Source: Candidatus Poribacteria bacterium WGA-3G (GTDB taxonomy: Bacteria > Poribacteria > WGA-4E > WGA-3G). Taken from it: a stretch of 64,000 nt of DNA. The position numbers and the translations under genes are program-made. Under the pieces are notes generated by a model. It was not told where the DNA came from. It was given only the letters and a program-made list of their open reading frames with translations, and did no database searches. The stretch covers positions 3,309 to 67,308 of the forward strand of contig ASZN01000021.1 in assembly GCA_000406005.1 (NCBI GenBank), read 5' to 3'. Position 1 is the first letter of the stretch, and every line of letters begins with the position of its first letter. This document shows, in pieces, positions 7,713 through 62,930 of the stretch.

Positions 7713-8015
7713 TTGATGCTAACAACACTCATTCATCAAGAACTACTTGACAACCTGATGACGTTCCGCTTCGCCGCAGCAGTCTTTATCACACTGTTGC
7801 TTGTGGTTACAAATACCGCTGTGCTTATTAAGGACTATGAGCGACGCTTGGCAGGCTACAACGATGCTGTTAAAATGCATCAACGCCAACTCCAAGAGAC
7901 AAAAACCTATTCGGCAGGTGAAGTGTATGTTGATCGTCCACCTAACCCGTTAAGCATTTTCAATGTCGGATTCGATGAGCAACTTGAAAACAAGATTGAG
8001 GAGTTATTGACATGA
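7713..8015 (+). CDS. small single-pass membrane protein (hypothetical)
   Basis: One TM helix (AAAVFITLLLVVTNTAVLI). Its stop overlaps the start of the next gene (ATGA), which suggests translational coupling. Confidence 0.5.
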   Translation: MMLTTLIHQELLDNLMTFRFAAAVFITLLLVVTNTAVLIKDYERRLAGYNDAVKMHQRQLQETKTYSAGEVYVDRPPNPLSIFNVGFDEQLENKIEELLT

Positions 8016-9928
8016 AAACAGGACTATTTTTTCCGGTTATGCTTATCCTCTTATTAACCGCCGCTCTCTTTCTCCCGAGCAGCCCTGCACAAGATTACAC
8101 CCGATGGCAACTGCCTGAAGGCGCGATCGCGCGTTTTGGGAAGGGTATGCTCACCGAGTTCGTCTATTTGCCGGATGGTCATCGCCTCACCGTTTTGAGT
8201 TCGATCGGCACCTGGATATACGATGTCCGCACGGGTGAAGCACTGGATCTCATCACAGAACCGTTCACTGAAGATATGCGGCTCAGCCCCGATGGAAAGA
8301 CACTTGCTGCTGCAACGGACGGCAGCGTTTATTTATGGGACCTGCAGACTAAGAAATTGAAAAATGTTCTTGTAGGGGACACACATAGGATCGGTTCATT
8401 AACATTCAGCCCTACTGGAGAAACAGTCGCAGGCGGCACTTGGAACAATGCGATTCAACTGTGGGATATGCACACCGGTAAGTTGTTAAAGACCCTTATA
8501 GGACACACAGACCTTAACACAAGGTCTATGACTATTCGCTTTATCGCGTATTCGGACGATGGAAAGAGATTGGCGAGTGTCGGTTGGGAAGACAGAACAA
8601 CGATTCGTATTTGGGATGTGGAGACTGGACAACTCCGGCAGACGATCACTGAGCTTCCGAAACATATCTATAGTGTCGCATACTCGCCTGATAGTCAGTC
8701 CCTGGTGGGTGGCGGTAGCGATTCCAATATTTATCTTTGGGATGCTGGCACTGGAGAACGCCTAAAAACACTCGTTGGACATACAGCTGGCGTTGGTTCT
8801 GTGACCTACTCGCGAGATGGCACGACACTTGTGAGCGGGAGTTGGGATAAAACAATCCGCTTTTGGAACGCTAGCACCGGTGAACTCTTGAAAACCCTTA
8901 TCGGACATACGGAGGGTGGTGTTGCTGTAATGTACGCACCAGATGAAAAAACCGTTGCCAGTATGAGTTACTATGGCGGAACGATTCGTATTTGGGATGT
9001 GGGAACAGCCAAACTCTTGAAGACGATCACCGGACATACCGGCTCTTTTGGGAGATCAGTGGCGTTTTCACCGGATGGTCAGATGCTTGCGTATAATGGG
9101 ATGCCGGATAATACTATTCCGCTGCGCGATGTACAGAGTGGACAGCTTCTGAAAATCCTCACTGGGCATACAGATACTGTTAATTCGGTGCGGTTCTCAC
9201 CAGATAGCAGCGTGCTTGCGAGTGGGGGTTGGGATGGTAGTATCCGTTTATGGGATGTGGCGACTGGGCAGCTCCAAAAAACTATCACCGGACATGAGAA
9301 GGGTGTCCCTTCTATCAACTATTCACCGGACGGTGCAACCCTTATGAGTGGAAGTTGGGATAATACAATCCGTTTCTGGGATGTTGGGACGGGTAAACAC
9401 TTAAAAACCATAGTAGGGAACATCGCACAACTGGATGCGATCCAAGGTGTTAGGGCTATTGCCTTGAGTCCGGATGGGGGAACGATTGCCAGTGCAACGG
9501 ATGAAAAAGTGATTCGGTTATGGGACGTGCACACCGGTAAACTCAAAGACTCCCTTGTTGGACACACGAACGAGGTTGCTGCTGTCGCATTTTCTCCAAG
9601 TGGAGCCGTGCTTGCAAGTGGTAGTGACGATGCCACAGTGCGTTTATCGGATGTGGAAACAGGTAAACTGCTGAATACCTTCAAAGAGCCTACAAGAAGC
9701 AGTGTTTTATCCGTTGCCTTTAGTCCAGATGGACGTATACTTGCGAGTGGATGTTCTGGCGTGATTCGGTTGCGGGACACATCCACTAAGCGAAACACAG
9801 TGACCCTCACTGGACATACGACTTGGGTCCGGGCGTTAGCGTTCAGCCCTGATGGACACATACTTGCCAGTATAGACGAAAGTGGTGTGGTTATGCTATG
9901 GGATATGAACCAGGTTCGATGGCAATAG
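8012..9928 (+). CDS. secreted WD40-repeat beta-propeller protein (~14 WD repeats)
   Basis: Signal peptide, then repeated units of the form GHT..V.SVAFSPDG..LASGS.D.TIRLWDV.TG.LLKTL. Confidence 0.9.
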   Translation: MKTGLFFPVMLILLLTAALFLPSSPAQDYTRWQLPEGAIARFGKGMLTEFVYLPDGHRLTVLSSIGTWIYDVRTGEALDLITEPFTEDMRLSPDGKTLAAATDGSVYLWDLQTKKLKNVLVGDTHRIGSLTFSPTGETVAGGTWNNAIQLWDMHTGKLLKTLIGHTDLNTRSMTIRFIAYSDDGKRLASVGWEDRTTIRIWDVETGQLRQTITELPKHIYSVAYSPDSQSLVGGGSDSNIYLWDAGTGERLKTLVGHTAGVGSVTYSRDGTTLVSGSWDKTIRFWNASTGELLKTLIGHTEGGVAVMYAPDEKTVASMSYYGGTIRIWDVGTAKLLKTITGHTGSFGRSVAFSPDGQMLAYNGMPDNTIPLRDVQSGQLLKILTGHTDTVNSVRFSPDSSVLASGGWDGSIRLWDVATGQLQKTITGHEKGVPSINYSPDGATLMSGSWDNTIRFWDVGTGKHLKTIVGNIAQLDAIQGVRAIALSPDGGTIASATDEKVIRLWDVHTGKLKDSLVGHTNEVAAVAFSPSGAVLASGSDDATVRLSDVETGKLLNTFKEPTRSSVLSVAFSPDGRILASGCSGVIRLRDTSTKRNTVTLTGHTTWVRALAFSPDGHILASIDESGVVMLWDMNQVRWQ

Positions 9929-19093: not shown

Positions 19094-19231
19094 AACTTAC
19101 GCAGCCCCCTTTGCAGGGTTTTTGCTTGGGTGTTTCTTCAGGGTTTGAAACCCCGACTATGATCGAAACGTCAACCCCCTTGCAGGCGGGGTTTCAAACC
19201 CCGTTTACGATAGAAAAAATGCGTAAACCCT
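19093..19231. repeat. composite REP/MITE-like element (degenerate acttacgca TIR, 'tttgcagggtttttgcttgggtgtttcttcagggtttgaaaccccg' module, and palindrome tgcaggcggggtttcaaaccccg)
   Basis: Shares modules with elements at 45770, 62841 and 26344. Confidence 0.6.
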
Positions 19232-19269: not shown

Positions 19270-20571
19270 ATGTACAAAAAACTTTTACGCATAGGATTGG
19301 CATGTCTGATAAGTTTTCTTATCGTGTCGAACACCAGCCATGCCCAAGAACGTATTACCGGTCCGTGGCTCTGGATGATCGCTCTCACCGAACTCAACGA
19401 AGGCGGACAGGCTTCTACTGACATCGATTCTCTTGATGAAGCCAGTAAAGGCAGAACCACCGAAGAACACGTCGCAGAAAACGGTGCAAACGAAGGCGAT
19501 GAAGTCAGCGGTTATAGATGGACCCCCGGTGAACTCCCAGCAGACGGCAACATCAATACCTTGCTCGTTGATATTGGAATGACAGACATTGCCGATTTTA
19601 ACGATGTCACATCTTATGCCATTATCATCATCGAATCCGACGAAGAGCAACGTAATGTTAAAATGGGTGTCAGCAGCGATGACTCTATTAAAGTCTGGCT
19701 CAACGGTGAAGTCGTCCATAAAAACGCGGTCAATCGCGGACGCGGCGGTGCCAATGAATTTCAAGATGAATTCCAAGTTAACCTCAAAGAAGGTGCGAAC
19801 CTTTTAATGGTCAAAGTCAGTGAGCGCGGCGGCGGATGGGGAATGAACGTCGGCATCGATGCCGATTTCGACCACAGTCTGAACTTCGATGATTACGAAC
19901 ACGGCGAAGTAGACGCTAAGGGTGATCCGATTCCCGTACAAGAAACGGCATGGGGTGCAAACAGACGCATTACCGGTCCCTGGCTCTGGATGATCGCACC
20001 CACCAAAGCCAATCAAGGCGGACAGGCTTCCACCGAGGTCGATTCGCTCGACGAAGCCAGTAATGGTAAAGTCACCGAAGAGGAAGTCGCAAAAAATGGC
20101 GCGAACGAAGGTGATGAAGTCGGCGATTATGAATGGACAATCGGCGAACTCCCAGCAGACGGCAACATCAACACAACAGTTGTATCGATAGGTATGACAA
20201 ACGTCGCCGATTTTAACGATGTTACGTCCTACGCGCTGATTACGCTTAAAACCACCAAAGCACAGCGCGATGTTATCATGGGCGTTAACAGTGATGACTC
20301 TATCAAAGTCTGGCTCAACGGTGAAGTCGTCCATACAAACGCCGTAAATCGCGGACGCGGCAACGCAAACGCTTTCCAAGATACCTTCGAGGTTGACCTC
20401 GAACGCGGTAATAACATCTTAATGGTTAAAGTCAGTGAACGTGGCGGCGGATGGGGCATGTACGTCGGCATTGATGCAGATTTCGCACTCAGTAGTACGC
20501 CAGGACGCTTGTCCGTTGAACCTACAGGGAAATTTATAACGAAGTGGGGTGAACTAAAACGCACCCGCTAA
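19270..20571 (+). CDS. secreted protein, paralog 1 of a tandem family (two ~200-aa repeat units; possible lectin/PA14-like beta-sandwich)
   Basis: Signal peptide. Unit motif GPWLWMIAPT..NQGGQASTDIDSLDEAS...DDSIKVWLNGEVVH.NAVNRGRG...VKVSERGGGWGMYVGIDAD occurs twice. Confidence 0.8.
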   Translation: MYKKLLRIGLACLISFLIVSNTSHAQERITGPWLWMIALTELNEGGQASTDIDSLDEASKGRTTEEHVAENGANEGDEVSGYRWTPGELPADGNINTLLVDIGMTDIADFNDVTSYAIIIIESDEEQRNVKMGVSSDDSIKVWLNGEVVHKNAVNRGRGGANEFQDEFQVNLKEGANLLMVKVSERGGGWGMNVGIDADFDHSLNFDDYEHGEVDAKGDPIPVQETAWGANRRITGPWLWMIAPTKANQGGQASTEVDSLDEASNGKVTEEEVAKNGANEGDEVGDYEWTIGELPADGNINTTVVSIGMTNVADFNDVTSYALITLKTTKAQRDVIMGVNSDDSIKVWLNGEVVHTNAVNRGRGNANAFQDTFEVDLERGNNILMVKVSERGGGWGMYVGIDADFALSSTPGRLSVEPTGKFITKWGELKRTR

Positions 20572-20749
20572 GGTAGGCACTTTCAACCAAACAATTCAAA
20601 AATTCAATTTAATCGAAAAATATATTTGACTTTTTTGGTAACCTGTGCTAACCTATTACGTTGGTTGAATAGAAGGGACATAATGGCATAATCATTTTGT
20701 CCTGCTCTCTCCAAAACGATAGTAAACAGAGACTATTTCTAAATTTCTC

Positions 20750-20901
20750 AGGACTTACGCATGCTGCTCTTTTGTAGCACGATGCACTTCGCATCTGGGC
20801 GAGTACGCCGCAAAACTTCATAGTTTGTGTCACCAGAACGCTGTGTTTTCCGAAAATTCTCATCTAACAGAACGGACTGCAGTCAAAATTGCGTAAGTCC
20901 T
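20750..20901. mobile_element. MITE-like element copy A (TIR AGGACTTACGCA / TGCGTAAGTCCT) with a ~40-bp internal insertion; flanked by a duplicated AAATTTCT
   Basis: Terminal inverted repeats are perfect over 12 bp. Flanks read ..ctAAATTTCTc[element]AAATTTCTaac. Confidence 0.7.
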
Positions 20902-20942
20902 AAATTTCTAACAAGCAACAAGAGGAGATTTCACGTAAATAA

Positions 20943-21644
20943 ATGTACAAAAAATTATGGCTCATAGGATTGACATGTCTAATCGGTCTTTCGTTTATAA
21001 CGCATATCGCTGATGCCGAAACGCCCATCGCAGGACCGTGGCTCTGGATGATCGCACCCACTGAAGCCAACCAAGGTGGACAAGCCTCGACCGATATTGA
21101 TTCGCTTGACGAGGAAAGTAAAGGCAAAGTCACAGAAGAAGATGTCGCAAAAAACGGTGCCAGAGAAGGCGATGAAGTCGGCGACTATGAATGGACACCC
21201 GGCGAACTGCCAGCAGACGGCAACATTAACACCATGCTCGTCTCAATCAAGATGACAAAAGTCGCCGATTTTAACGATGTTACCTCTTACGCCCTTCTGA
21301 TACTCGAATCCAGCAAAACACAGTCCAAGGTGACAATGGGTACCAGCAGCGATGACTCTATCAAAGTCTGGCTTAATGGTGAAGAGGTTCATAAGAAGGC
21401 TGTGAACCGTGGTCGCGGCGGCACACCCGCAAATATCAATGGCTACCAAGATAGGTTCGAGGTGGACATCAAAAAAGGTGCCAACCTGTTGTTGGTCAAA
21501 GTCAGTGAGCGCGGCGGCGGATGGGGACAGTACGTCGGTATCGATGCCGATGTCGAACCCCACATAGATTTTGACGGGTTTCAACCCGTTGAACCCGCTG
21601 GAAAATTAGCGACACAATGGGCAGAAATTAAGAACGCGCATTAG
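20943..21644 (+). CDS. secreted protein, paralog 2 (single repeat unit)
   Basis: Same unit motif as paralog 1. A 40-mer at 21041 is identical to 40-mers at 22001 and 22561. Confidence 0.8.
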   Translation: MYKKLWLIGLTCLIGLSFITHIADAETPIAGPWLWMIAPTEANQGGQASTDIDSLDEESKGKVTEEDVAKNGAREGDEVGDYEWTPGELPADGNINTMLVSIKMTKVADFNDVTSYALLILESSKTQSKVTMGTSSDDSIKVWLNGEEVHKKAVNRGRGGTPANINGYQDRFEVDIKKGANLLLVKVSERGGGWGQYVGIDADVEPHIDFDGFQPVEPAGKLATQWAEIKNAH

Positions 21645-21905
21645 TGCTGTCGTTTTCAATCCGAACATTTTCGTTACCTGTTTTCGGTGCTATTCGATAG
21701 AGATATTTCACGTTGACTGGGCAACGAAAATTAAATTGTTCCAACCACCACTTTTTAATCTTGATTTAAATTGTGGTTATTTGTTAAACTAATATCGAAT
21801 AGTTGTTCATCCTTAATTTAAAAAGGCGTCAGAAACCATAACGCAATAGATGAGCACTGTTAAAGTTAAATGTTATTTTCTCAAAAAAATTAAACGGAGG
21901 ATTTT

Positions 21906-23153
21906 ATGAACAGGAAACTATTTGTAGGGTTAACGTGCCTTATGGCGATCTTCTTCATGACGCACATCGCTGATGCACAAGAACCAATTGCAGGCCCCTG
22001 GCTCTGGATGATCGCACCCACTGAAGCCAACCAAGGTGGAGAGGCTTCTACCGATATCGATTCTCTCTCAGTCGCCAGTGGTGGTGATGTCACTGAAGAT
22101 ATGGTCGCAGCAAACGGCGCAACCGAAGGCGACGAAGTCGGCGATTACGCTTGGACAATCGGCACGCTCCCAGCAGACGGAAACACCAATACCATGCTCG
22201 TCGAACTCGGTGTCACAGAAAATGCCGATTTCAACGACGTGAGTTCTTATGGACTTATCTACCTTGTATCCGCGACTGCTCAGTCCGGCGTAACGCTCGG
22301 CGCCAGCAGTGATGACTCTGTCAAAATCTGGCTCAACGGCGAAGTCGTTCACACAAACGCTGTCAACCGTGGACGCGGCGGCGCACCCGCTGATATAGAT
22401 GGCTACCAAGATAAAATTGAAGTAAACCTCGTAGAAGGGGCTAATCTGTTGCTCGTGAAGGTGAGCGAACGCGGTGGTGGATGGGGACAATACGTCGGTA
22501 TCGATGCCGATGTCACGACCTCACCTACGCCACCTATCTTTCACATTACAGGCGAATATGTCTGGATGATCGCACCCACTGAAGCCAACCAAGGTGGACA
22601 GGCTTCTACCGATATCGATTCCCTCGCAGTCGCCAGTAACGACGATGTCACCGAAGAAGACATCGCAATGAACGGCGCAACCGAAGGCGACGAAGTCGGC
22701 GATTACGCTTGGACGGTCAGTACCCTCCCAGCAGACGGAAACATCAACACCATGCTCGTCGAACTCGGCGTCACAGAAAACGCTGACTTCAACGACGTTA
22801 CCTCTTACGCCGTCATCACACTCGTAGCCGATGAAGATATGGAAGGCGTGATGTTCGGGGTCAGCAGTGACGATTCCGTCAAAGTCTGGCTCAACGGTGA
22901 AGTCGTTCACACAAACGCTGTAAACCGCGGACGCGGCAACGCCCAATCCTTCCAAGATACGTTCGCAGCTAACCTTGTCCAAGGCGACAACATCCTGATG
23001 ATAAAAGTCAGTGAACGTGGCGGCGGGTGGGGAATGTATGCCGGTACCAGTGCTGATGTCGAGGCTGTCTATAAGCCAGCTGTCGAATTAGGCACATCCG
23101 TTGAAGCCGCTGGCAAACTCCCAACAACATGGGGAAGCTTGAAAATTAAGTAA
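21906..23153 (+). CDS. secreted protein, paralog 3 (two repeat units)
   Basis: Signal peptide plus two units with the conserved motifs. Confidence 0.8.
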   Translation: MNRKLFVGLTCLMAIFFMTHIADAQEPIAGPWLWMIAPTEANQGGEASTDIDSLSVASGGDVTEDMVAANGATEGDEVGDYAWTIGTLPADGNTNTMLVELGVTENADFNDVSSYGLIYLVSATAQSGVTLGASSDDSVKIWLNGEVVHTNAVNRGRGGAPADIDGYQDKIEVNLVEGANLLLVKVSERGGGWGQYVGIDADVTTSPTPPIFHITGEYVWMIAPTEANQGGQASTDIDSLAVASNDDVTEEDIAMNGATEGDEVGDYAWTVSTLPADGNINTMLVELGVTENADFNDVTSYAVITLVADEDMEGVMFGVSSDDSVKVWLNGEVVHTNAVNRGRGNAQSFQDTFAANLVQGDNILMIKVSERGGGWGMYAGTSADVEAVYKPAVELGTSVEAAGKLPTTWGSLKIK

Positions 23154-23190
23154 TTCCTAATGTTAACGCGAGGATTTTGCTTCGCAACTT

Positions 23191-23240
23191 AAAATGAGAG
23201 GACGCAGCTGATACACTTCAACTGCGTCCTCTCATTTTAC
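23191..23240. terminator. bidirectional rho-independent terminator between convergent genes
   Basis: AAAATGAGAGGACGCAG...CTGCGTCCTCTCATTTT, a 15-bp stem flanked by A and T tracts. Confidence 0.75.
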
Positions 23241-26343: not shown

Positions 26344-26392
26344 ACACAAATCCCACTGCAGGACGGGGTTTCAAACCCCGCCTGCAATATCA
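26344..26392. repeat. REP-like palindrome TGCAGGaCGGGGTTTCAAACCCCGCCTGCA
   Basis: Near-perfect palindrome, found again at 14310 and 19190. Confidence 0.6.
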
Positions 26393-28557: not shown

Positions 28558-28752
28558 AGGACTTACGCATGCTGCTCTTTTGTAGCACAAACTTCTTAGT
28601 TTGTGTCACCAGAACCCTGTGTTTTCTTGGATAGGACTTACGCATGCTGCTCTTTTGTAGCACAAACTTCTTAGTTTGTGTCACCAGAACCCTGTGTTTT
28701 CCGAAAATTCTCATCTAACAAAACGGGCTGCAGTCAAAATTGCGTAAGTCCT
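28558..28752. mobile_element. MITE-like element: a 5' partial copy (~71 bp plus a duplicated TTGGAT flank) in tandem with a full copy (28633-28752)
   Basis: The string 'ttggataggacttacgcatgctgctcttttgtagcacaaacttcttagtttgtgtcaccagaaccctgtgttttc' occurs twice in tandem. The full copy ends in TGCGTAAGTCCT. Confidence 0.7.
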
Positions 28753-28967
28753 ATTGGAAAAGGGTGGAAATTAAAAAGGTGTCTATCGGTTTTTGGGAAG
28801 TCGCATTCCTCATCATAATCCTTTTGGGAATCGTCATTGCGTCGCGTCTCGTCGAAAGACTTCGGACGAAACGCATTTGTCCAGAGTGTGGCTTAGCAAT
28901 TCATACGCACACATCAACTTGTCCGTCATGCAAGCACACTTTCCAAAGAAAAAATAAAGGAGGCTAA
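28740..28967 (+). CDS. small membrane protein with a C-terminal zinc ribbon (CPECG...CPSC); hypothetical
   Basis: The ATG lies inside the MITE terminus, with an alternative GTG at about 28773. The stop region supplies the copZ SD, so the two may be translationally coupled. Confidence 0.35.
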   Translation: MRKSYWKRVEIKKVSIGFWEVAFLIIILLGIVIASRLVERLRTKRICPECGLAIHTHTSTCPSCKHTFQRKNKGG

Positions 28968-39750: not shown

Positions 39751-40524
39751 CTACATTTCGGTATTAAGCGTTTGCATCTCTGCGTCGGTCAACTCCCACT
39801 CAAAGACATCCAAATTCTCCCGTAAATGCGGCACTGAACCCGATTTCGGTATTGTGATAATGCCTTGCTGTATAAGCCAACGGAGAGCGACCTGCGCTGC
39901 GGTCTTCCCGTGATTCTCACCGATCTTGCCCAACATAGCGTCCCCGGCAAGGTTGCCAACAGCGAGCGGACGATGCGCTGTCATTACAATGTCACGTGCA
40001 TGGCAATAGTCTCGCAATTCTGCACGGTTTCTCCGAACATGATACTCCACCTGATTTGTGCAAATCGGAAGTTCTGAGACCTCATACGCCTCTTCAACTT
40101 GAGCGATGCTAAAGTTACTGATACCGATGCTTTTCACCTGACCCGCGTCGTAGAGTTTTTGGAATGCATCAAAAGTCTCAGTAACCGGAACAGAGCCGCT
40201 CGGATGGTGAATCAATAACAGATCAACGTAATCCATTTGCAAATCGCTGAGGCACGCCTCAAATTGAGCGAGGACCTCGTCATGCTTGAGATGGGTGTGC
40301 CAAATTTTAGTGGTAAGAAAAATATTTTCGCGGTCGATATGAACGTCGCGAAGTGCGTTCCCGATTTCGCGTTGGTTCTGGTACATCCACGCTGTGTCGA
40401 TATGGGTATACCCGAAGTCAACGGCTTCTTTGACAATGCGTTCGCACTGCCTGCCTTTGAGCTGCCAGGTTCCTAAACCCAGTATTGGTATTTCGTGTCC
40501 TGATGCAAGTTTGATATTTTTCAT
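39751..40524 (-). CDS. aldo/keto reductase (2,5-diketo-D-gluconate reductase-like)
   Basis: GLGTWQLKG and DTAWMYQNQ AKR signatures. Confidence 0.9.
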   Translation of the reverse strand: MKNIKLASGHEIPILGLGTWQLKGRQCERIVKEAVDFGYTHIDTAWMYQNQREIGNALRDVHIDRENIFLTTKIWHTHLKHDEVLAQFEACLSDLQMDYVDLLLIHHPSGSVPVTETFDAFQKLYDAGQVKSIGISNFSIAQVEEAYEVSELPICTNQVEYHVRRNRAELRDYCHARDIVMTAHRPLAVGNLAGDAMLGKIGENHGKTAAQVALRWLIQQGIITIPKSGSVPHLRENLDVFEWELTDAEMQTLNTEM

Positions 40525-40688
40525 AATATCAACATCTTACGTGATTCCGAAAAAAAAGTCAAGTGCGAAGAAAAATCAATCAGGAACTAAATCGTCCTGA
40601 AATGCCAATTTATTTTTCAGATTTGGTATAAAATTTCACATAAACACAGCGAGATAGACTTTTTTTTCAAAATAACGCCAAAAAAAAG

Positions 40689-40719
40689 TTGACAAACACT
40701 AAAGAAATAGAGTATACTA
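40689..40719 (+). promoter_or_regulatory. putative sigma-70 promoter of the tRNA-Leu gene (TTGACA ... TATACT, 19-nt spacer)
   Basis: The -35 is consensus. The -10 ends about 13 nt before the tRNA 5' end. Spacing is suboptimal. Confidence 0.3.
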
Positions 40720-40767
40720 TTAATATTATTGTGGTCGAGTGGTGGAATCGGTAGACACAACGGACTT

Positions 40768-43185
40768 GTGCGCCATTGTGCTAATGTGCCCAATTGAGAT
40801 ATAAATCTCTATACTAATTAGGAAATGGTATAAAGCCAACTGCTTTAGGGTAAAGAGAAATCTAAACCTGAACATAGCATAGCAGTAAAGGATAGAATGG
40901 ATGAACTAACCTAATCCAAAGCTATTCAAGGCTTGAGAGATATGGTAAGAGTTATACTACCCGAAATCCAATACGCAGGAGTAAGTGTGGCTAAAAGGGC
41001 AAGGTTAGTGATGCCCCCACTAAGAGATGACATTAGATTTTAAGTCTGTCTAATGCCTTCCTAAATCTCTTAGACACTGTGAAATATACACAGGCAAGCG
41101 TATGAGTGGATTACCTAAGTCTCTCTATCGTTGACACATTGGAACTATGGGATAGTCTAAAGGGTGAGAACCCCATGGCTACGGAGTTTCCATAGTAGTC
41201 GCTCTCAACTGAGAATAAGACTATGCGAAGGTATAGTGAAGATGAAGGGAAACAGGTAAGTTAATCCAAGTAGATATAAGAGTAATGCGAAATGCATATT
41301 ATCTCGAATAAATACCTTGGAATAGTGAGTGATAGAGGAAAAAGAAATCTTCCGCTAAAGCGCGTATACTCTAATATGTGCGATAGAGAATTATTTCTAA
41401 TTGCCTATCATCAAATGGCGAAAAAGAAAGGTGCCATGACAAAGGGGTCTAACTCCGAAAACATTGATGAAATGTCGATTACAAAAATAGATAAAATCAT
41501 CAATGAACTTAAAACCGGAAAATATAGACCCAAACCCAGTCGTAGGGTCTATGTATCTAAACCAGACGGAAAACAAAGATGTTTAGGAATACCATGCTGG
41601 ACAGACAAACTCGTCCAACGTGTAGTAACGATGATACTGGGAGAATACTATGAACCCCAGTTCTCAGATCACTCGCATGGATTTAGACCCAATAGAGGTT
41701 GTCATACTGCTTTGGAAGAAATAGCCATAGCGTGGAAAGGGACAAAGTGGTTTATAGAAGGAGACATAAAGGGCTGCTTCGACAACATAAACCATGAATA
41801 CCTACTGAAGATCCTAAGAAAAAGGATTTTAGATGAAAGACTCATTAAACTCATTCGTATATGGCTAAAAGCCGGGTATATCGAGAATTGGACATACCAC
41901 AACACATACTCAGGCACGCCACAAGGCGGCGTTATGAGTCCTCTACTGGCTAACATATACCTCTCTGAATTAGATGAAAAATTAGAAGAATTATCTGAAA
42001 TCTGGAAAGTAGGAAAATCAAGAGGAACAAACCCCGAATACGCTAAACTATCGCGAAAAATCAACAAAGCAAAGAAGGAAAATAACGCCCAAGAAGCAAA
42101 AGAAGCACGGAAAGAACTTAACATCGCTAAAAGCAAAGGGCTTACTTGGTCGAATCCGCAAGATGACAATTTCCGCAGACTAAAATTTGTCAGATACGCA
42201 GACGATTTTATTATCGGATTTATCGGTAGCAAAGCAGAAGCCAAAGACATCAAAAAGGAAGTCAAAACTTTCCTCAAAGATGAAATTGGACTCACGCTAT
42301 CGGACGATAAAACGAAAATAACGAACGCGACACACGAAAAAGCACGCTTTCTTAACTACGAAATCTTTACCGAGAAATCAACAACAAGACCAAGAATAAA
42401 TGGAACAATCCGCTTGGACTTGCCTCACGACGTGTTCATAAAATGGAAAAGGAAGTATACTAAGAAAGGGAAAGCCTATCACAGCCCCTACTACATGGAA
42501 CTATCCGATTATATGATAATCAGGGCATATAATGCAGAGTTTCAAGGTCTCTATCAGTATTACATAATGGCTCAAAACGTATCGAGCAAATTATATCAAT
42601 TGAAGAGCTATGTGATGACATCAGCAGCTAAAACCTTGGCATCCAAACACAAACTCTCTGTAAACAAAATATGCGAAAAATATAAGAGGACCGGCAGCAA
42701 CGGCGTAAAAGCACTCATAGTAGAGGTCAATAGAAAGGATAAACCGCCCTTAGTCGCCACATTAGGGGACTTCCAAATAAAATGGGTAAAGTTTCCGAGT
42801 AAGAAAGATAAGCCATACAACGATGAAATTAGAGGTATAAAAGTTCTTGATGATAAAAAAAGTGTCCGGTCTGACCTCCTAACAAGGCTTATGAATAACA
42901 CTTGTGAAATATGTGGAAATACGGATGAAATAGAAGTACACCACATCAGAAAAATGAGTGATATTGATAAGAACAAAGAAGGATGGCAAAAACTCATGAG
43001 TAGCATGAGACGAAAGACACTCATCGTCTGCAAGGACTGTCATCATAAAATCCATATAGGAAAATATGATGGAAAATCACTATAAAAACTTACTGGAGAG
43101 CTACGTGCATTGAAAAGTGCAAGCGTGGTTCGGAGGGGGACTATTGAAAACACAGATGATGCTGTGCGTTGGTAGTCTACCCTAC
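40768..43185 (+). mobile_element. group II intron (~2.4 kb) with an intron-encoded protein in domain IV
   Basis: 5' GTGCG. Domain V is GAGAGCTACGTGCATT-GAAA-AGTGCAAGCGTGGTTC (AGC triad, GAAA loop) at about 43098-43131. Domain VI follows and the 3' end is ...CCTAC. The ORF at 41292-43085 encodes RT, maturase (X) and HNH domains. Confidence 0.85.
41292..43085 (+). CDS. group II intron reverse transcriptase/maturase with C-terminal HNH endonuclease domain
   Basis: RT motifs include FVRYADDFIIGF (YADD). An X/maturase region is present. HNH/zinc-finger-like sequence: CEICGNTDEIEVHHI...CKDCHHKIH. Confidence 0.9.
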   Translation: MHIISNKYLGIVSDRGKRNLPLKRVYSNMCDRELFLIAYHQMAKKKGAMTKGSNSENIDEMSITKIDKIINELKTGKYRPKPSRRVYVSKPDGKQRCLGIPCWTDKLVQRVVTMILGEYYEPQFSDHSHGFRPNRGCHTALEEIAIAWKGTKWFIEGDIKGCFDNINHEYLLKILRKRILDERLIKLIRIWLKAGYIENWTYHNTYSGTPQGGVMSPLLANIYLSELDEKLEELSEIWKVGKSRGTNPEYAKLSRKINKAKKENNAQEAKEARKELNIAKSKGLTWSNPQDDNFRRLKFVRYADDFIIGFIGSKAEAKDIKKEVKTFLKDEIGLTLSDDKTKITNATHEKARFLNYEIFTEKSTTRPRINGTIRLDLPHDVFIKWKRKYTKKGKAYHSPYYMELSDYMIIRAYNAEFQGLYQYYIMAQNVSSKLYQLKSYVMTSAAKTLASKHKLSVNKICEKYKRTGSNGVKALIVEVNRKDKPPLVATLGDFQIKWVKFPSKKDKPYNDEIRGIKVLDDKKSVRSDLLTRLMNNTCEICGNTDEIEVHHIRKMSDIDKNKEGWQKLMSSMRRKTLIVCKDCHHKIHIGKYDGKSL

Positions 43186-43250
43186 AAAATCCGTCGCCCT
43201 AAACAGGTGTGAGGGTTCAAGTCCCTCCTCGACCATAATTCAATACAAGT

Positions 43251-43340
43251 AGAACTTACGCGCTTCCACGGTAGGTGCGGTTTCATAACCGCACCCGATT
43301 ACGTCATCATAGACCTAATTCTCTGATTTCGCGTAAGTCT
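43251..43340. repeat. short MITE/REP-like element (TIR AGAACTTACGCG...CGCGTAAGTCT) enclosing the palindrome GGTGCGGTTTCATAACCGCACC
   Basis: Shares the ACTTACGC terminal motif with the main MITE family. Confidence 0.55.
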
Positions 43341-43356
43341 TGACAATAATTCTTGA

Positions 43357-43430
43357 CGCAGGGTAGAGCAGCCAGGTAGCTCGTCGGGCTCATAACCCGG
43401 AGGACGGGGGTTCAAATCCCCCCCCCTGCA
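43357..43430 (+). tRNA. initiator tRNA-fMet (CAU)
   Basis: CGCAGGGTAGAGCAGCCAGGTAGCTCGTCGGGCTCATAACCCGGAGG...: C1:A72 mismatch, three G:C pairs in the anticodon stem, anticodon CAT. Closely matches E. coli tRNA-fMet as recalled. Confidence 0.85.
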
Positions 43431-43525
43431 ATCTTCTCAACCCCTAAATGTTCTTTGATACATCAACGATAACATACAAAAAACACACTTAACCTCATCG
43501 TTTCCGATAATCCATCTCAACCTAT

Positions 43526-43599
43526 GCCGGTGTAGCTCAGTGGTTTAGAGCACACGACTCATAATCGTGCTGTCCGGAGTTCGACTCTCCGCACCGGCA
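43526..43599 (+). tRNA. tRNA with CAU anticodon (elongator Met or tRNA-Ile2, the lysidine substrate)
   Basis: GCCGGTG-TA-GCTC-AGTGGTTTA-GAGC-A-CACGA-CTCATAA-TCGTG-CTGTC-CGGAG-TTCGACT-CTCCG-CACCGGC-A. Confidence 0.85.
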
Positions 43600-43653
43600 T
43601 CGTTCTACCGTTTAAGCGGTGGGATACAATTTGCCGTTAAAATTGGCGACCTC

Positions 43654-45099
43654 ATGACAGCCGACTTCGTTCAACAGATGCACCGCTCCATAGCAGAGCA
43701 TAAAATGATTGAGGACGCTGAAACTGTGCTCGTCGCAGTCTCAGGCGGCGCAGATTCGCTTGCACTCCTATACGCACTGCACGCTTTACGCCAACAACTC
43801 AGATGTCATCTGCACGTTGTACATCTAAACCACTGCCTCCGACCAGACGCTGACACAGACGCTGACTTCGTCCGACAACACGCAGAACACCTAAATCTGC
43901 CTTGCACCCTCCAACAGGTAGATGTGTTCCGTTTAGCAAAACAGTGGAAACTCTCTGTAGAAACCGCCGGACGCAGAGCACGCTATCAATTCTATGATTC
44001 CGTCTGTTCGGAAACCGACGCGACGAAAGTCGCCTTAGGACACCACCAAGACGACATCGCCGAAACGGTTCTGATGAACCTCATACGCGGGAGCGGAACC
44101 GACGGATTGAAAGGCATCGTTCCCGTCAGGGATATGAAATTTATTAGACCTCTGATAGAATTTACACGTCAACAGATTGAGGCGTTCCTAACGTCCATAG
44201 GTATTGTCCCGCGACACGATTCAACCAACACCGATACACGCTATCTTCGCAATCGTATCCGCCACGAGTTGATACCAAGGCTTGAGAACAATTATAATCC
44301 AAATATCAAAGCCGCATTAAGCCGGACTGCTGATGTATTAGGTACTGAATCGGAATACCTTGATACAATCGCTTGCACAGCGTTTGAGGCGTGCCAAATA
44401 CAAGTCTCGCAAGAGACTATTATCCTTGATAGGGAAAAATTTCGACAGCACCACATCGCACTGCAGAGACGGATCCTCCGGAAAAGCGTATCCGAGATGT
44501 TAGGCGATTCGAGCGATCTCTATTTCAAACACTGCATCGCGATGCAAAATCTCATTGAAGGCGACGCACCTAATGCTGTCCTGCCACTTCCGAACGGTTT
44601 ACAATTTCGGCGTGCATATCAACGGATCGCCTTTGAAAGAAAAACAACTGAAATAGGAAACTTCTCCTATCCGATCGCCACTGTTGGAAAAACACTTATA
44701 GCGGCTTTAAATGCCGAAATTATTGCAGAATTGGGGGATGGAACATCTCGTAGAACACCCACACCACCCAATGGCAAATTTGAAGCGATATTTGATTATC
44801 AAAAGTTAAGAAAGGTATTTGCAGAACCGTTTTCAGAAGCAATCCCGCTCACATTGCGTAATCGGCGACAAGGCGACCGGTTTCAGCCGTACGGTATGCA
44901 AGGGACGAAAAAAATTAAGGATTTTTTGATAGATGCCAAGGTGCCTCGCCACGAACGCGACAACATTCCGCTCCTTGTTTGCGGCGATGTGATCTTGTGG
45001 GTCATCGGTTATACAACCAGCGATCTTTTCAAGGTCCAACCGCACACACAACACTATCTCTACCTAAGTTATGCCAGCAGCGACGAAACCGCTCCCTGA
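43654..45099 (+). CDS. tilS: tRNA(Ile)-lysidine synthetase
   Basis: PP-loop VAVSGGADSLALLY plus a TilS C-terminal domain. The listed ORF begins inside the tRNA; ATG 43654 is preferred. Confidence 0.85.
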   Translation: MTADFVQQMHRSIAEHKMIEDAETVLVAVSGGADSLALLYALHALRQQLRCHLHVVHLNHCLRPDADTDADFVRQHAEHLNLPCTLQQVDVFRLAKQWKLSVETAGRRARYQFYDSVCSETDATKVALGHHQDDIAETVLMNLIRGSGTDGLKGIVPVRDMKFIRPLIEFTRQQIEAFLTSIGIVPRHDSTNTDTRYLRNRIRHELIPRLENNYNPNIKAALSRTADVLGTESEYLDTIACTAFEACQIQVSQETIILDREKFRQHHIALQRRILRKSVSEMLGDSSDLYFKHCIAMQNLIEGDAPNAVLPLPNGLQFRRAYQRIAFERKTTEIGNFSYPIATVGKTLIAALNAEIIAELGDGTSRRTPTPPNGKFEAIFDYQKLRKVFAEPFSEAIPLTLRNRRQGDRFQPYGMQGTKKIKDFLIDAKVPRHERDNIPLLVCGDVILWVIGYTTSDLFKVQPHTQHYLYLSYASSDETAP

Positions 45100-45637
45100 A
45101 TCTGTTCTCATTTCTGAACCGTGCCTCCAAAAACGTATTCGCGAACTCGGCACACAAATTCTTGCCGATTATGAAAACCAAGAGTTAATACTCCTCGGTG
45201 TCCTGAGGGGAAGTGTGTTATTTTTCGCTGATCTCTCTCGTGCTATCTTCGGTGCACAACTTGAAAAACCCAGCAGAGAAGTACAGGTCCGTTTTGAATT
45301 CGTACAACTCACGAGTTATAATAATAACACACAACCATCGGCAGTCGAACTTATTCACGGCGGCAGCGACTATCTCGAACATCAGAATATCCTCATCGTC
45401 GAGGATATTATCGATACTGGACAAACTTTGAAACTTCTATACGAACATCTACGGACACTGAACCCGAAAACCGTTAAGGTGTGCACACTCCTCGACAAAC
45501 CGTCTAAACGTCGAGTACCTGTCACTATTGACTATATCGGTTTTGAGGTGCCGGATGCTTTCGTCGTAGGCTACGGACTTGACTACGCACAACAATATCG
45601 GAATTTACCGTATATCGCCTTGTTGGAATCAACCTAA
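45071..45637 (+). CDS. hpt: hypoxanthine phosphoribosyltransferase
   Basis: PRTase motif NILIVEDIIDTGQTL. Conserved tilS-hpt gene order. Confidence 0.85.
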   Translation: MPAATKPLPESVLISEPCLQKRIRELGTQILADYENQELILLGVLRGSVLFFADLSRAIFGAQLEKPSREVQVRFEFVQLTSYNNNTQPSAVELIHGGSDYLEHQNILIVEDIIDTGQTLKLLYEHLRTLNPKTVKVCTLLDKPSKRRVPVTIDYIGFEVPDAFVVGYGLDYAQQYRNLPYIALLEST

Positions 45638-45769
45638 GCAATTTCAATGGACGATAAAGACTATCCAGCACCACAATATTTGGTGCAAAGCACTTTTTAT
45701 ATTTTTTTCTTGACAATAATTTGAATTATTTGATATAATATATTAATCCTTTAATACATAATTATTAAT

Positions 45770-45922
45770 AGGACCTACGCACACCCCATGCAGGGTTTTT
45801 GCAATGTAATACAAGGAATGGATTTCGTCTATTCCCAGACTAAATCCGGTGTTTCTTCAGGGTTTGTAACCCCGCCTGATGCCCGTATTATGTAGAATCT
45901 CATGAAAAAATGCGTAAGTCCT
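45770..45922. mobile_element. diverged MITE-like element (AGGACCTACGCAC...TGCGTAAGTCCT) carrying the gggtttgtaaccccgcctg palindrome module
   Basis: The terminal inverted repeats differ from the main family at 2 positions. The interior is shared with 19093 and 62841. Confidence 0.6.
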
Positions 45923-45998
45923 AATTAAGTTGAATTGACACGCCTTTGCTAAGACAGCAATTTAAGTTACAATAAACATCACCAAGAGGGGGTTTATA

Positions 45999-46781
45999 AT
46001 GCGTAAACTCGTTTCGTTTGCCCTATGTGGTGTTTTGATCACGGCATTCATCTTTTTCACACAAGCACAAATGTCAGACAAAGCACAACTGGGGCGCGAA
46101 CTTTTTCACGATCCAACTTTCAAAGGAACAATCAAACCCGGTAAAGTAAAAGGATTCGCTACTGGGCTTACCTGCGCAAACTGCCACGCAGATTTTGACG
46201 AGACAACACATCCGGATGGAGTCATTCGTGCCGGACACAGTATGGTTGGTGTCCCACACCGCGGACAGGCGAAAGGCGGAATGATCTCAGCCGACATCTT
46301 TGAACGCGCAGCAGGCGGCGGCGGTTTCTGCTACCAGCACTTCCTACAGCGAATACCAGGTCCCGAAGTCGATCCAACCGCAATCCCTGAAGAACACGCT
46401 GAAGCACTTATGGCGTATTTCAAAGCGATCTCCGGTGATAACAAGGGTCCCCAATTTGAAATAGCAATGTTAGATGACAATGCCAAAAAGGCAGCCGGTG
46501 AGAAACTCGCTGCTATGAGCGGCGAGGCAGAAAACGGATGGCAACTCTTCGGGCGCGCATGCGTCGTCTGCCACCCGTCACCCTATAAAGCCGGAATCGG
46601 ACCCCAACTCATCCGATCAAGACCACCTCGGAATATCGACGCAACACTGGAACGTTGGGCAACGAAAATTCGAGGCGGCGGTACGCTCATGCCTTTCTAT
46701 GCACCTGATATCCTCAGCGACCAACAAGTCGCAGATATTATCGCATTCCTGCGCCAAGAATTAGAAAACGCCGGAAATTAA
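45999..46781 (+). CDS. secreted diheme c-type cytochrome
   Basis: Signal peptide. Two CxxCH motifs: CANCH and CVVCH. Confidence 0.8.
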   Translation: MRKLVSFALCGVLITAFIFFTQAQMSDKAQLGRELFHDPTFKGTIKPGKVKGFATGLTCANCHADFDETTHPDGVIRAGHSMVGVPHRGQAKGGMISADIFERAAGGGGFCYQHFLQRIPGPEVDPTAIPEEHAEALMAYFKAISGDNKGPQFEIAMLDDNAKKAAGEKLAAMSGEAENGWQLFGRACVVCHPSPYKAGIGPQLIRSRPPRNIDATLERWATKIRGGGTLMPFYAPDILSDQQVADIIAFLRQELENAGN

Positions 46782-62157: not shown

Positions 62158-62277
62158 AGGACTTACGCATGCTGCTCTTTTGTAGCACAAACTTCTTAGT
62201 TTGTGTCACCAGAACGCTGTGTTTTCCGAAAATTCTCATCTAACAGAACGGGCTGCAGTCAAAATTGCGTAAGTCCT
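62158..62277. mobile_element. MITE-like element copy C (full length, 120 bp)
   Basis: Differs by 1-3 nt from copy B2 and has perfect 12-bp terminal inverted repeats. Confidence 0.75.
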
Positions 62278-62323
62278 ATTGATGTTATACCATTTCTGAA
62301 AAGATGAATGTCGTACCGTACAC

Positions 62324-62840: not shown

Positions 62841-62930
62841 CCCTTCCTTCATACCACCCTTTGCAGGGTTTTTGCTTGGGTGTTTCTTCAAGGGTTTGTA
62901 ACCCCGCCATCCTACTTCAGACTGAGATTA
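62841..62930. repeat. REP-like module 'ctttgcagggtttttgcttgggtgtttcttcaagggtttgtaaccccgcc'
   Basis: Near-identical to 19107-19160. Confidence 0.55.

Follow-up and report, generated by a model that had tools for sequence, protein, structure and literature searches.

A tandem array of three genes, carried on a 64,000-nucleotide stretch of DNA from Candidatus Poribacteria bacterium WGA-3G (contig ASZN01000021.1; the whole stretch is hereafter called the window), encodes proteins whose predicted fold leads us to regard them, with moderate confidence, as Sec-exported, non-catalytic, calcium-dependent glycan-binding proteins. Poribacteria are among the most abundant and widespread symbionts of sponges and are uncultivated, and the means by which they adhere to, recognise or feed on the glycan-rich matrix of their hosts are an open question. 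Their habitat is the extracellular matrix of the sponge (PMC5087111), where proteoglycans and glycoproteins abound (PMC6081418), and they encode many surface repeat proteins (PMC3909097); because of this residence in a proteoglycan-rich matrix, the ecological setting fits glycan binding.

Architecture of the array

A first-pass annotation of this DNA had described three secreted paralogs built from two, one and two copies of a unit of about 200 amino acids (aa), and open reading frames (ORFs) with this 2/1/2 arrangement are indeed present at exactly the coordinates that it gave. The repeated unit is likewise real, but its size needs correction: the core spans 172-176 aa, within a repeat period of 205 aa in gene 1 and 186 aa in gene 3. 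Units were located by a DNA repeat search, which found five copies, and then by a hidden Markov model (HMM) built from those copies; tblastn found no further paralog within the window. The components are as follows.

19270..20571, + strand: gene 1, ORF of 433 aa; signal peptide, two units and C-terminal tag
19270..19344, + strand: gene 1 signal peptide, aa 1-25; cleavage predicted between SHA and QE (feature analysis)
19354..19869, + strand: gene 1 unit 1, predicted PA14-like beta-sandwich of 172 aa; HMM positions 1-172, 334 bits
19969..20484, + strand: gene 1 unit 2; HMM, 339 bits
20943..21644, + strand: gene 2, ORF of 233 aa; signal peptide, one unit and C-terminal tag
20943..21017, + strand: gene 2 signal peptide, aa 1-25; cleavage predicted between ADA and ET (feature analysis)
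21027..21554, + strand: gene 2 unit, 176 aa; HMM and AlphaFold model
21906..23153, + strand: gene 3, ORF of 415 aa; signal peptide, two units and C-terminal tag
21906..21977, + strand: gene 3 signal peptide, aa 1-24; cleavage predicted between ADA and QE (feature analysis)
21987..22514, + strand: gene 3 unit 1, 176 aa; HMM
22545..23060, + strand: gene 3 unit 2, 172 aa; HMM

Each of the three genes has its own Shine-Dalgarno-like sequence, signal peptide and tag. The leaders combine a basic n-region, a hydrophobic core (10-aa hydropathy 2.5-3.1) and an SHA or ADA cleavage site, a pattern that manual feature scoring also identified in 226 of 228 relatives, and the three products are very probably substrates of the Sec pathway and signal peptidase I. 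These features, together with the existence of relatives that are extracellular multidomain proteins, bear out the earlier proposal of a secreted or surface family. Lipoprotein anchoring through a conserved leader Cys was considered and rejected: residues -3 to -1 are unlike a lipobox, and a lipobox occurs in only 1 of the 228 relatives.

Domain identity and predicted fold

The domain had been described at first as belonging to no known family and as weakly reminiscent of PA14 or a lectin-type beta-sandwich, and both statements hold. Against the PA14 model of Pfam (PF07691; gathering score 24 bits), gene 3 scores 27.2 bits and gene 1 21.2 bits, gene 2 gives no match, and the partial matches centre on the SSDDS.KVWLNGEVV segment. 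The Pfam model matched by most members of the family is RhaB_D2 (PF21557; gathering score 27 bits), which scores 32.7 bits on gene 1 (85 of 172 profile positions), 22.8 on gene 3 and 12.2 on gene 2, and reaches E <= 0.01 in 18 of 76 diverse members (best E 4.5e-5). GH2_N (PF02837) stays below its gathering score of 28 bits, with 17.1 bits on gene 1 only and 2 of the 76 members at E <= 0.01, and matches to the 3-keto-disaccharide hydrolase and other Pfam families are weaker still. The array proteins have zero matches in NCBIfam, and two profile searches of all Protein Data Bank (PDB) sequences gave no real match. By these profile comparisons the domain is uncatalogued, no existing Pfam or NCBIfam model appearing to describe the family.

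The mature gene 2 protein was modelled with AlphaFold2 after 60 divergent single-domain relatives had been added to the alignment, which superseded an earlier run on a shallow alignment in which only one of five models converged (predicted local distance difference test score, pLDDT, 72.5). The five models now agree, each with a pLDDT of at least 90 (91.3 for the model used, with a predicted template modelling score, pTM, of 0.87), and the predicted fold is a beta-sandwich with short helices inserted past the first strand. Foldseek searches of the PDB returned only carbohydrate-binding beta-sandwiches, with a probability of ~1. Among these were PA14 domains, namely the PA14 insert of a GH31 alpha-xylosidase (7knc, E = 9.5e-5), MpPA14 (5j6y/6x8a, template modelling score (TM) 0.45-0.47) and the PA14 domain of KmBglI; N-domains of GH2 enzymes, which ranked best or near best, namely CapGH2b (9np*), the beta-glucuronidase 6d8k and 7vqm (E = 4e-6 to 5e-4, TM 0.35-0.46); and CBM35. 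The PA14 dyad of RsgI (6qdi) was matched with the first AlphaFold model.

With PA14 lectins such as MpPA14 of the Marinomonas primoryensis adhesin and the A-domains of yeast Epa/Flo adhesins, the family would have in common the beta-sandwich (Foldseek probability 1.0), and both have a DD pair followed by a strand x-[KR]-[VL]-W-[LIV]-[ND]-G, the site of the Pfam PA14 alignment. Both are extracellular, the array family by prediction, and occur either as a stand-alone adhesin head or as a module of large adhesins and enzymes, and tandem two-domain forms have a parallel in the PA14 dyads of clostridial RsgI anti-sigma factors (PMC6852018). Unlike PA14, the array family has an N-terminal I-x-G-P-W-L-W-M strand, a SERGGGWG loop and an acidic helical insertion of ~45 residues (DIDSL...VTEE..VA.NGA.EGD). 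The GH2 N-domain (PF02837), RhaB_D2 and CBM35 resemble it in the C-terminal half, x-V-W-[LV]-N-G-x-x-V ... G-x-N-x-L-x-V-x-V, whereas genes 1-3, in contrast to GH2 glycosidases, carry no catalytic domain and consist solely of signal peptide, units and tag.

Proposed calcium and glycan binding

Among the 76 diverse members, D113 never varies and D112 is kept in at least 90%; the PA14 profile aligns exactly over this Asp-Asp pair (SSDDSIKVWLNG), and the DD motif is followed by a conserved [N/D]-R loop. In PA14 lectins, a DcisD motif, with its cis peptide, and an Asn on a second loop hold the Ca2+ ion that ligates vicinal sugar hydroxyls, and in an RsgI module loss of the DD abolishes both calcium and pectin binding (PMC8092209, PMC6852018). 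It is from the conservation of the DD at the PA14-aligned position, together with the [N/D]-R loop, that we infer Ca2+-dependent glycan binding: by analogy, the pair and the loop would most likely hold a calcium ion for vicinal sugar hydroxyls. One-unit and two-unit proteins would then act as monovalent and bivalent binders, with glycans of the sponge matrix or of particles as likely ligands, and the C-terminal tag would probably retain or sort the short proteins at the cell envelope.

Several observations weigh against this interpretation. The PA14 match of gene 3 consists of two ~27-residue stretches at profile positions 63-89 of 147 and is not a full-domain match, and only 3 of the 76 diverse members match PA14 at E <= 0.01. 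The DD is part of a strand region that is conserved in structure, and folding could be the sole reason why the pair is kept; of the NRGRG loop, only [N/D]-R persists in distant members; and the calcium site and the cis peptide at the DD motif are putative. No transcript or protein evidence for the family was found in the literature, and the conserved flanks of the array contain no transporter, glycosidase or secretion gene and so give no functional link. The fold matches, finally, are remote (TM <= 0.47, 10-17% identity, root-mean-square deviation 5-8 A), and because of these low values the modelled family is best placed within the PA14 / galactose-binding-like superfold as a remote branch of its own.

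The same domain in large surface proteins

An exhaustive profile search of 1.84 billion cluster representatives found 3,114 proteins with the domain at E <= 1e-3, 218 of them at E <= 1e-30, and many are 800-2,800 aa long. Nine large relatives combine the domain with leucine-rich repeats (LRRs), dockerin, cohesin, LDL-receptor class B repeats and a pectate-lyase-like domain, as well as with Reprolysin-like matches and FlgD_ig/Por_Secre_tail C-terminal domains; their sequences contain HELGHxFGLRH zinc-peptidase motifs and a type IX secretion system (T9SS) tail of the type NYPNPFNPETWIPY...RKMLIxK. In P0157 and P0246 the domain lies directly N-terminal to the zinc-metallopeptidase motif, and a T9SS-type C-terminal domain of 70-100 aa is present in P0126, P0130, P0134, P0139 and others but absent from genes 1-3. 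We regard the domain, on this sequence evidence, as a general module of Poribacteria extracellular proteins, and its fusion to LRRs, dockerin, cohesin, peptidase and T9SS domains places it in extracellular machinery that faces glycans or the matrix. This use of the module, like the C-terminal tag described next, had been overlooked in the first-pass annotation.

A short C-terminal tag

All three array proteins end in a tag of ~18 residues, V-E-[PA]-x-G-K-[LF]-x-T-x-W-[GA]-x-[LI]-K followed by 2-3 residues.

20515..20568, + strand: gene 1 C-terminal tag, VEPTGKFITKWGELKRTR
21588..21641, + strand: gene 2 C-terminal tag, VEPAGKLATQWAEIKNAH; predicted helix, low confidence
23100..23150, + strand: gene 3 C-terminal tag, VEAAGKLPTTWGSLKIK

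Six-frame translation of 868 kb of Poribacteria loci contains the motif 163 times, 159 of them no more than 6 residues from a stop codon, and the tag profile gave no significant internal match in 1,690 ORFs. Twelve tag-bearing ORFs lack the array domain, and all have signal peptides; they comprise Laminin_G_3 and F5/8-type-C-like proteins, a 603-aa metallopeptidase-LamG_3 fusion, and a sister PA14-like family that aligns with the array domain at an hhalign probability of 98.5%. Tag-bearing ORFs elsewhere are found at these positions, with L numbers denoting the loci that were compared.

L003:687-1547
L030:5030-5728, - strand
L030:3770-4591, - strand
L032:6853-7686
L045:101-1912

The tag is absent from the large relatives that carry the T9SS-type C-terminal domain. 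It contains no transmembrane segment; an amphipathic helix is predicted at residues 194-207 of mature gene 2 (pLDDT ~50-59), and a database search with a 45-aa version returned only fragments of 31-79 aa from the same families. Because unrelated secreted families carry the tag, always at the extreme C-terminus, its distribution suggests a sorting, anchoring or docking signal. The inter-unit linker of gene 1 was considered as a relic of a tag, left by gene fusion, and this was rejected, as pairwise similarity is weak (p = 0.37, 0.03 and 0.007) and the profile does not match.

Like the T9SS C-terminal domain, the PEP-CTERM/exosortase and the LPXTG/sortase signals, the tag is strictly C-terminal, is paired with an N-terminal signal peptide and is common to unrelated secreted families within one lineage. 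It differs from PEP-CTERM and LPXTG in its length of ~18 residues and its lack of a transmembrane segment, and from the T9SS domain in being far shorter, the two being mutually exclusive on relatives. A sorting role by analogy with these signals is entirely hypothetical. We put forward only tentatively, as a doubtful proposal, that the motif [PS]-V-E-[PA]-x-G-K-[LF]-x-T-[TQ]-W-[GA]-x-[LI]-K-x(2-3)-COOH might be an undescribed sorting or anchoring signal of Poribacteria, an alternative to the T9SS domain that would label small secreted lectin-type proteins as a regulon-like set (the PA14-like family, the sister family, LamG, discoidin-like and metallopeptidase-LamG fusion proteins); the array would then be the most abundant cargo of the pathway, with a dedicated phylum-wide promoter, and would form a glycan-binding surface towards the sponge matrix.

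Alternative functions

The array proteins might instead be abundant structural components of a surface coat or matrix layer, comparable to an S-layer or a biofilm scaffold, in which the units polymerise or bind proteins and the tag self-assembles or attaches. A putative near-consensus promoter with an A/T-rich upstream element, conserved at the single-unit gene (see below), suggests high expression; the constant pairing of a one-unit with a two-unit gene is the commonest layout; the predicted amphipathic C-terminal helix could serve assembly; and the weak fold matches leave the class of ligand open. We nevertheless judge a coat function unlikely, given that the structural neighbours are all carbohydrate binders, that the DD motif is conserved, and that enzymes and LRR adhesins carry the domain as an accessory module, a use typical of binding modules and not of lattice proteins. 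Another role, as partners that target or regulate secreted metallopeptidases or other enzymes (in substrate recognition, or as a decoy, an inhibitor or a pro-domain-like chaperone), would draw on the position of the domain directly before the metallopeptidase motif in P0157 and P0246, on the Reprolysin-like or Metallopep Pfam matches of several relatives and on the presence of the tag on the 603-aa metallopeptidase-LamG protein. It strikes us as quite improbable, however: the domain is found equally with LRRs, pectate-lyase-like domains, cohesin/dockerin and LDL-receptor repeats and is thus not tied to peptidases, and there is no peptidase gene in the conserved neighbourhood of the array. Glycan binding by an exported, non-catalytic protein remains the reading that we prefer.

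Distribution, synteny and age

The gene 2 protein has 505 homologs in a collection of 5.8 billion proteins, and every named one is a Candidatus Poribacteria "hypothetical protein". A scan of the species representatives in GTDB yielded 74 loci, all from Poribacteria metagenome-assembled genomes (MAGs) or other MAGs of the same sponge studies; the scan relied on close-family peptide patterns, which distant relatives in other lineages could escape. The lineage-specific character first proposed for the family agrees with these counts, all named homologs and all 74 loci being Poribacterial. Gene 2 orthologs are 79-90% identical and gene 1 orthologs 84-94% identical in syntenic loci, the flanking genes are 88-99% identical to Poribacteria MAGs, which marks the window as part of a Poribacteria chromosome, and the 433/233/415-aa trio recurs with the same neighbours on another metagenome contig.

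Among 78 loci, the layout "single then double" occurs in 32, "2-1-2" in 15 and "2-1-1-2" in 4, the remainder being mainly lone one-unit or two-unit genes, some on truncated loci. Genes 2 and 3 are thus the widely conserved core, the single-unit and double-unit members of a pair, and gene 1, which is absent from L002 and from the 32 "1-2" loci, is a later, clade-specific addition. In a complete 5.24-Mb Poribacteria chromosome, the syntenic locus (L003:8903-14696) contains four family genes of 396, 239, 227 and 398 aa with six units, and additionally a divergently oriented, tag-bearing discoidin-like gene; the locus of the array is a hotspot for tag-bearing lectin-like genes.

The array is old. 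Its units in the window share 65-77% of their protein residues, 71-78% of their nucleotides and 52-66% of third codon positions, and because of this low identity (differences of 23-35% in protein and 34-48% at third codon positions) the duplication cannot be called recent, as had been supposed at first. Units also cluster by position across genomes: the nearest relative of a unit is the same-position unit in 923 of 1,050 comparisons, and orthologous units are 0.82-0.84 identical, as against 0.64-0.73 for paralogous pairs. The 2-1-2 layout with the same flanking genes is present in 15 Poribacteria genomes, complete chromosomes among them, at a synonymous divergence (dS) of up to ~1. That the repeats could be an artefact of assembly, or stem from one gene duplicated very recently, is hardly credible in this light, even though exact runs of 38-44 nucleotides (nt) are shared between units: the units differ at 23-29% of nucleotides, the 2-1-2 layout was assembled independently in 15 loci, the units are position-orthologous across genomes, and each gene has a ribosome-binding site, signal peptide and tag of its own. 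Unit divergence, 15-locus synteny and position orthology together rule out the assembly of one gene as three.

Gene conversion

Identical 40-nt strings shared by genes 2 and 3 had been taken to imply recent duplication or gene conversion, and of these two explanations it is gene conversion that withstands analysis. The string quoted at the time is 41 nt long (chance expectation, 0 matches). Its copies at 21040 and 22000 are exact, and the one at 22558 carries 3 mismatches at its 5' end; a core of 38 nt (21043, 22003 and 22561) is common to the three without any mismatch. The longest exact runs are 42 nt between gene 2 and gene 3 unit 1 (21039/21999), 40 nt between gene 2 and gene 3 unit 2, and 44 nt between the two units of gene 3, all of them above a codon-shuffle null (P <= 0.005).

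21039..21080, + strand: 42-nt exact match, likely a short gene-conversion tract; pairs with 21999-22040, its last 38 nt equal 22561-22598, and it encodes WLWMIAPTEANQGG

A permutation test, in which within-genome paralogs were compared with non-orthologous units from different genomes, gave a mean nucleotide identity of 0.7326 for paralogs of the same genome against 0.7218 by permutation (z = 11.8; reached in 0 of 2,000 permutations), and the excess similarity is concentrated in unit codons 1-30, 55-72 and 121-138. Individual sites follow genomes in the same manner: the Thr codon of the APT motif is ACT in units 3-5 of the window, ACA in L006 and L022, and ACC in L009 and L008, and all five units of L015 read Q-N-S where other genomes have Q-A-S. 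Codon usage within a genome could add to the global statistic but cannot explain such site-specific patterns, and the best explanation is short-tract gene conversion atop old paralogy, which keeps patches of the paralogs identical. In a separate comparison of the window (20943-23153) with L004, L005, L008, L009 and L016, several pairs gave a dS for genes 2 and 3 of roughly half the value in the flanking genes (in L005, for example, 0.45-0.48 versus 0.7-1.1), a reduction that hints at conversion, inter-strain recombination or nucleotide-level constraint.

Selection

Ratios of nonsynonymous to synonymous divergence (dN/dS; Nei-Gojobori, orthologs in 20 loci) are 0.07-0.24 for gene 1, 0.12-0.27 for gene 2 and 0.13-0.26 for gene 3, compared with 0.01-0.16 for six flanking genes; for gene 1 against its syntenic orthologs of 84-94% identity the range is 0.07-0.12. 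Purifying selection acts on all three genes, relaxed about 2- to 3-fold relative to their metabolic neighbours, and since dN/dS lies between 0.07 and 0.27 the proteins are functional. At the whole-gene level, the same range rules out positive selection and gives no support to the earlier description of the family as rapidly evolving.

Putative promoter, mobile element and other intergenic DNA

The following elements lie in and around the spacers of the array.

20597..20680, + strand: promoter-like block, ~85 nt; A/T-rich stretch, TTGACT-17 nt-TAACCT (20626-20654), then the conserved CGTTGGTTGAATA
20749..20902, + strand: insertion of 154 nt resembling a miniature inverted-repeat transposable element (MITE), in the gene 1-gene 2 spacer; outside the protein system
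23190..23239, strand not assigned: hairpin with 22-nt arms, 95% complementary, between gene 3 and the convergent downstream gene

A consensus promoter and terminator scan of the region gave nothing beyond chance, and the promoter-like block emerged from comparative alignment. Each locus has a single copy, invariably ahead of the single-unit gene. Identity among 29 loci is 78-95%, and the block is kept even in loci whose proteins are only ~55% identical, where it lies ~25 nt from the ribosome-binding site. Because even the sequence of the 17-nt spacer is conserved, the block suggests a regulator site or a very strong promoter. The hairpin is probably a bidirectional terminator, and Rfam detected no known RNA element above noise in the spacers.

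The MITE noted at the outset between the first two paralogs is confirmed: the segment, which lengthens the 5' region of gene 2, is missing from the orthologous spacer in L001 and L006, and copies of 96-100% identity lie elsewhere in the window, at 28558-28753 (partly tandem) and 62158-62278. Further copies occupy unrelated sites (L001:16641-16795, L009:3662-3783, L011 and L075), and the element measures ~120-155 nt with inverted ends AGGACTTACGCA...TGCGTAAGTCCT. A second intergenic repeat (CCCTTTGCAGGGTTTTTGCTTGGGTG...) is found at 19107-19155, downstream of a Thiamine_BP-like gene and upstream of gene 1, and at 62857-62906 (96% identical), with weaker copies at 45848-45877 and 26349-26387; it is also present in L001, L002, L066 and L068, and may be a repetitive extragenic palindromic (REP)-like or terminator-like element. 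Elsewhere in the window, a 638-aa ORF at 8012-9928 has at least 7 WD40-like repeats visible in the DNA, which is typical of Poribacteria repeat proteins, and positions 40001-46000, which hold ORFs of 597 aa and 510 aa, have a GC content of 0.40-0.44 against ~0.50 elsewhere and may be a horizontally acquired island.

Implications

These results reveal no new kind of biology, and would instead add a new branch to the PA14 / galactose-binding-like lectin world. They define a phylum-wide domain of more than 3,000 sequence clusters, without a solved relative, whose predicted fold points to sugar binding, and the "single plus double" gene pair is suited to recombinant expression and to glycan arrays. 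The array itself is a clean example of old tandem paralogs that are partly identical through short-tract gene conversion, while the tag on its products may reveal how small secreted proteins stay retained in Poribacteria.

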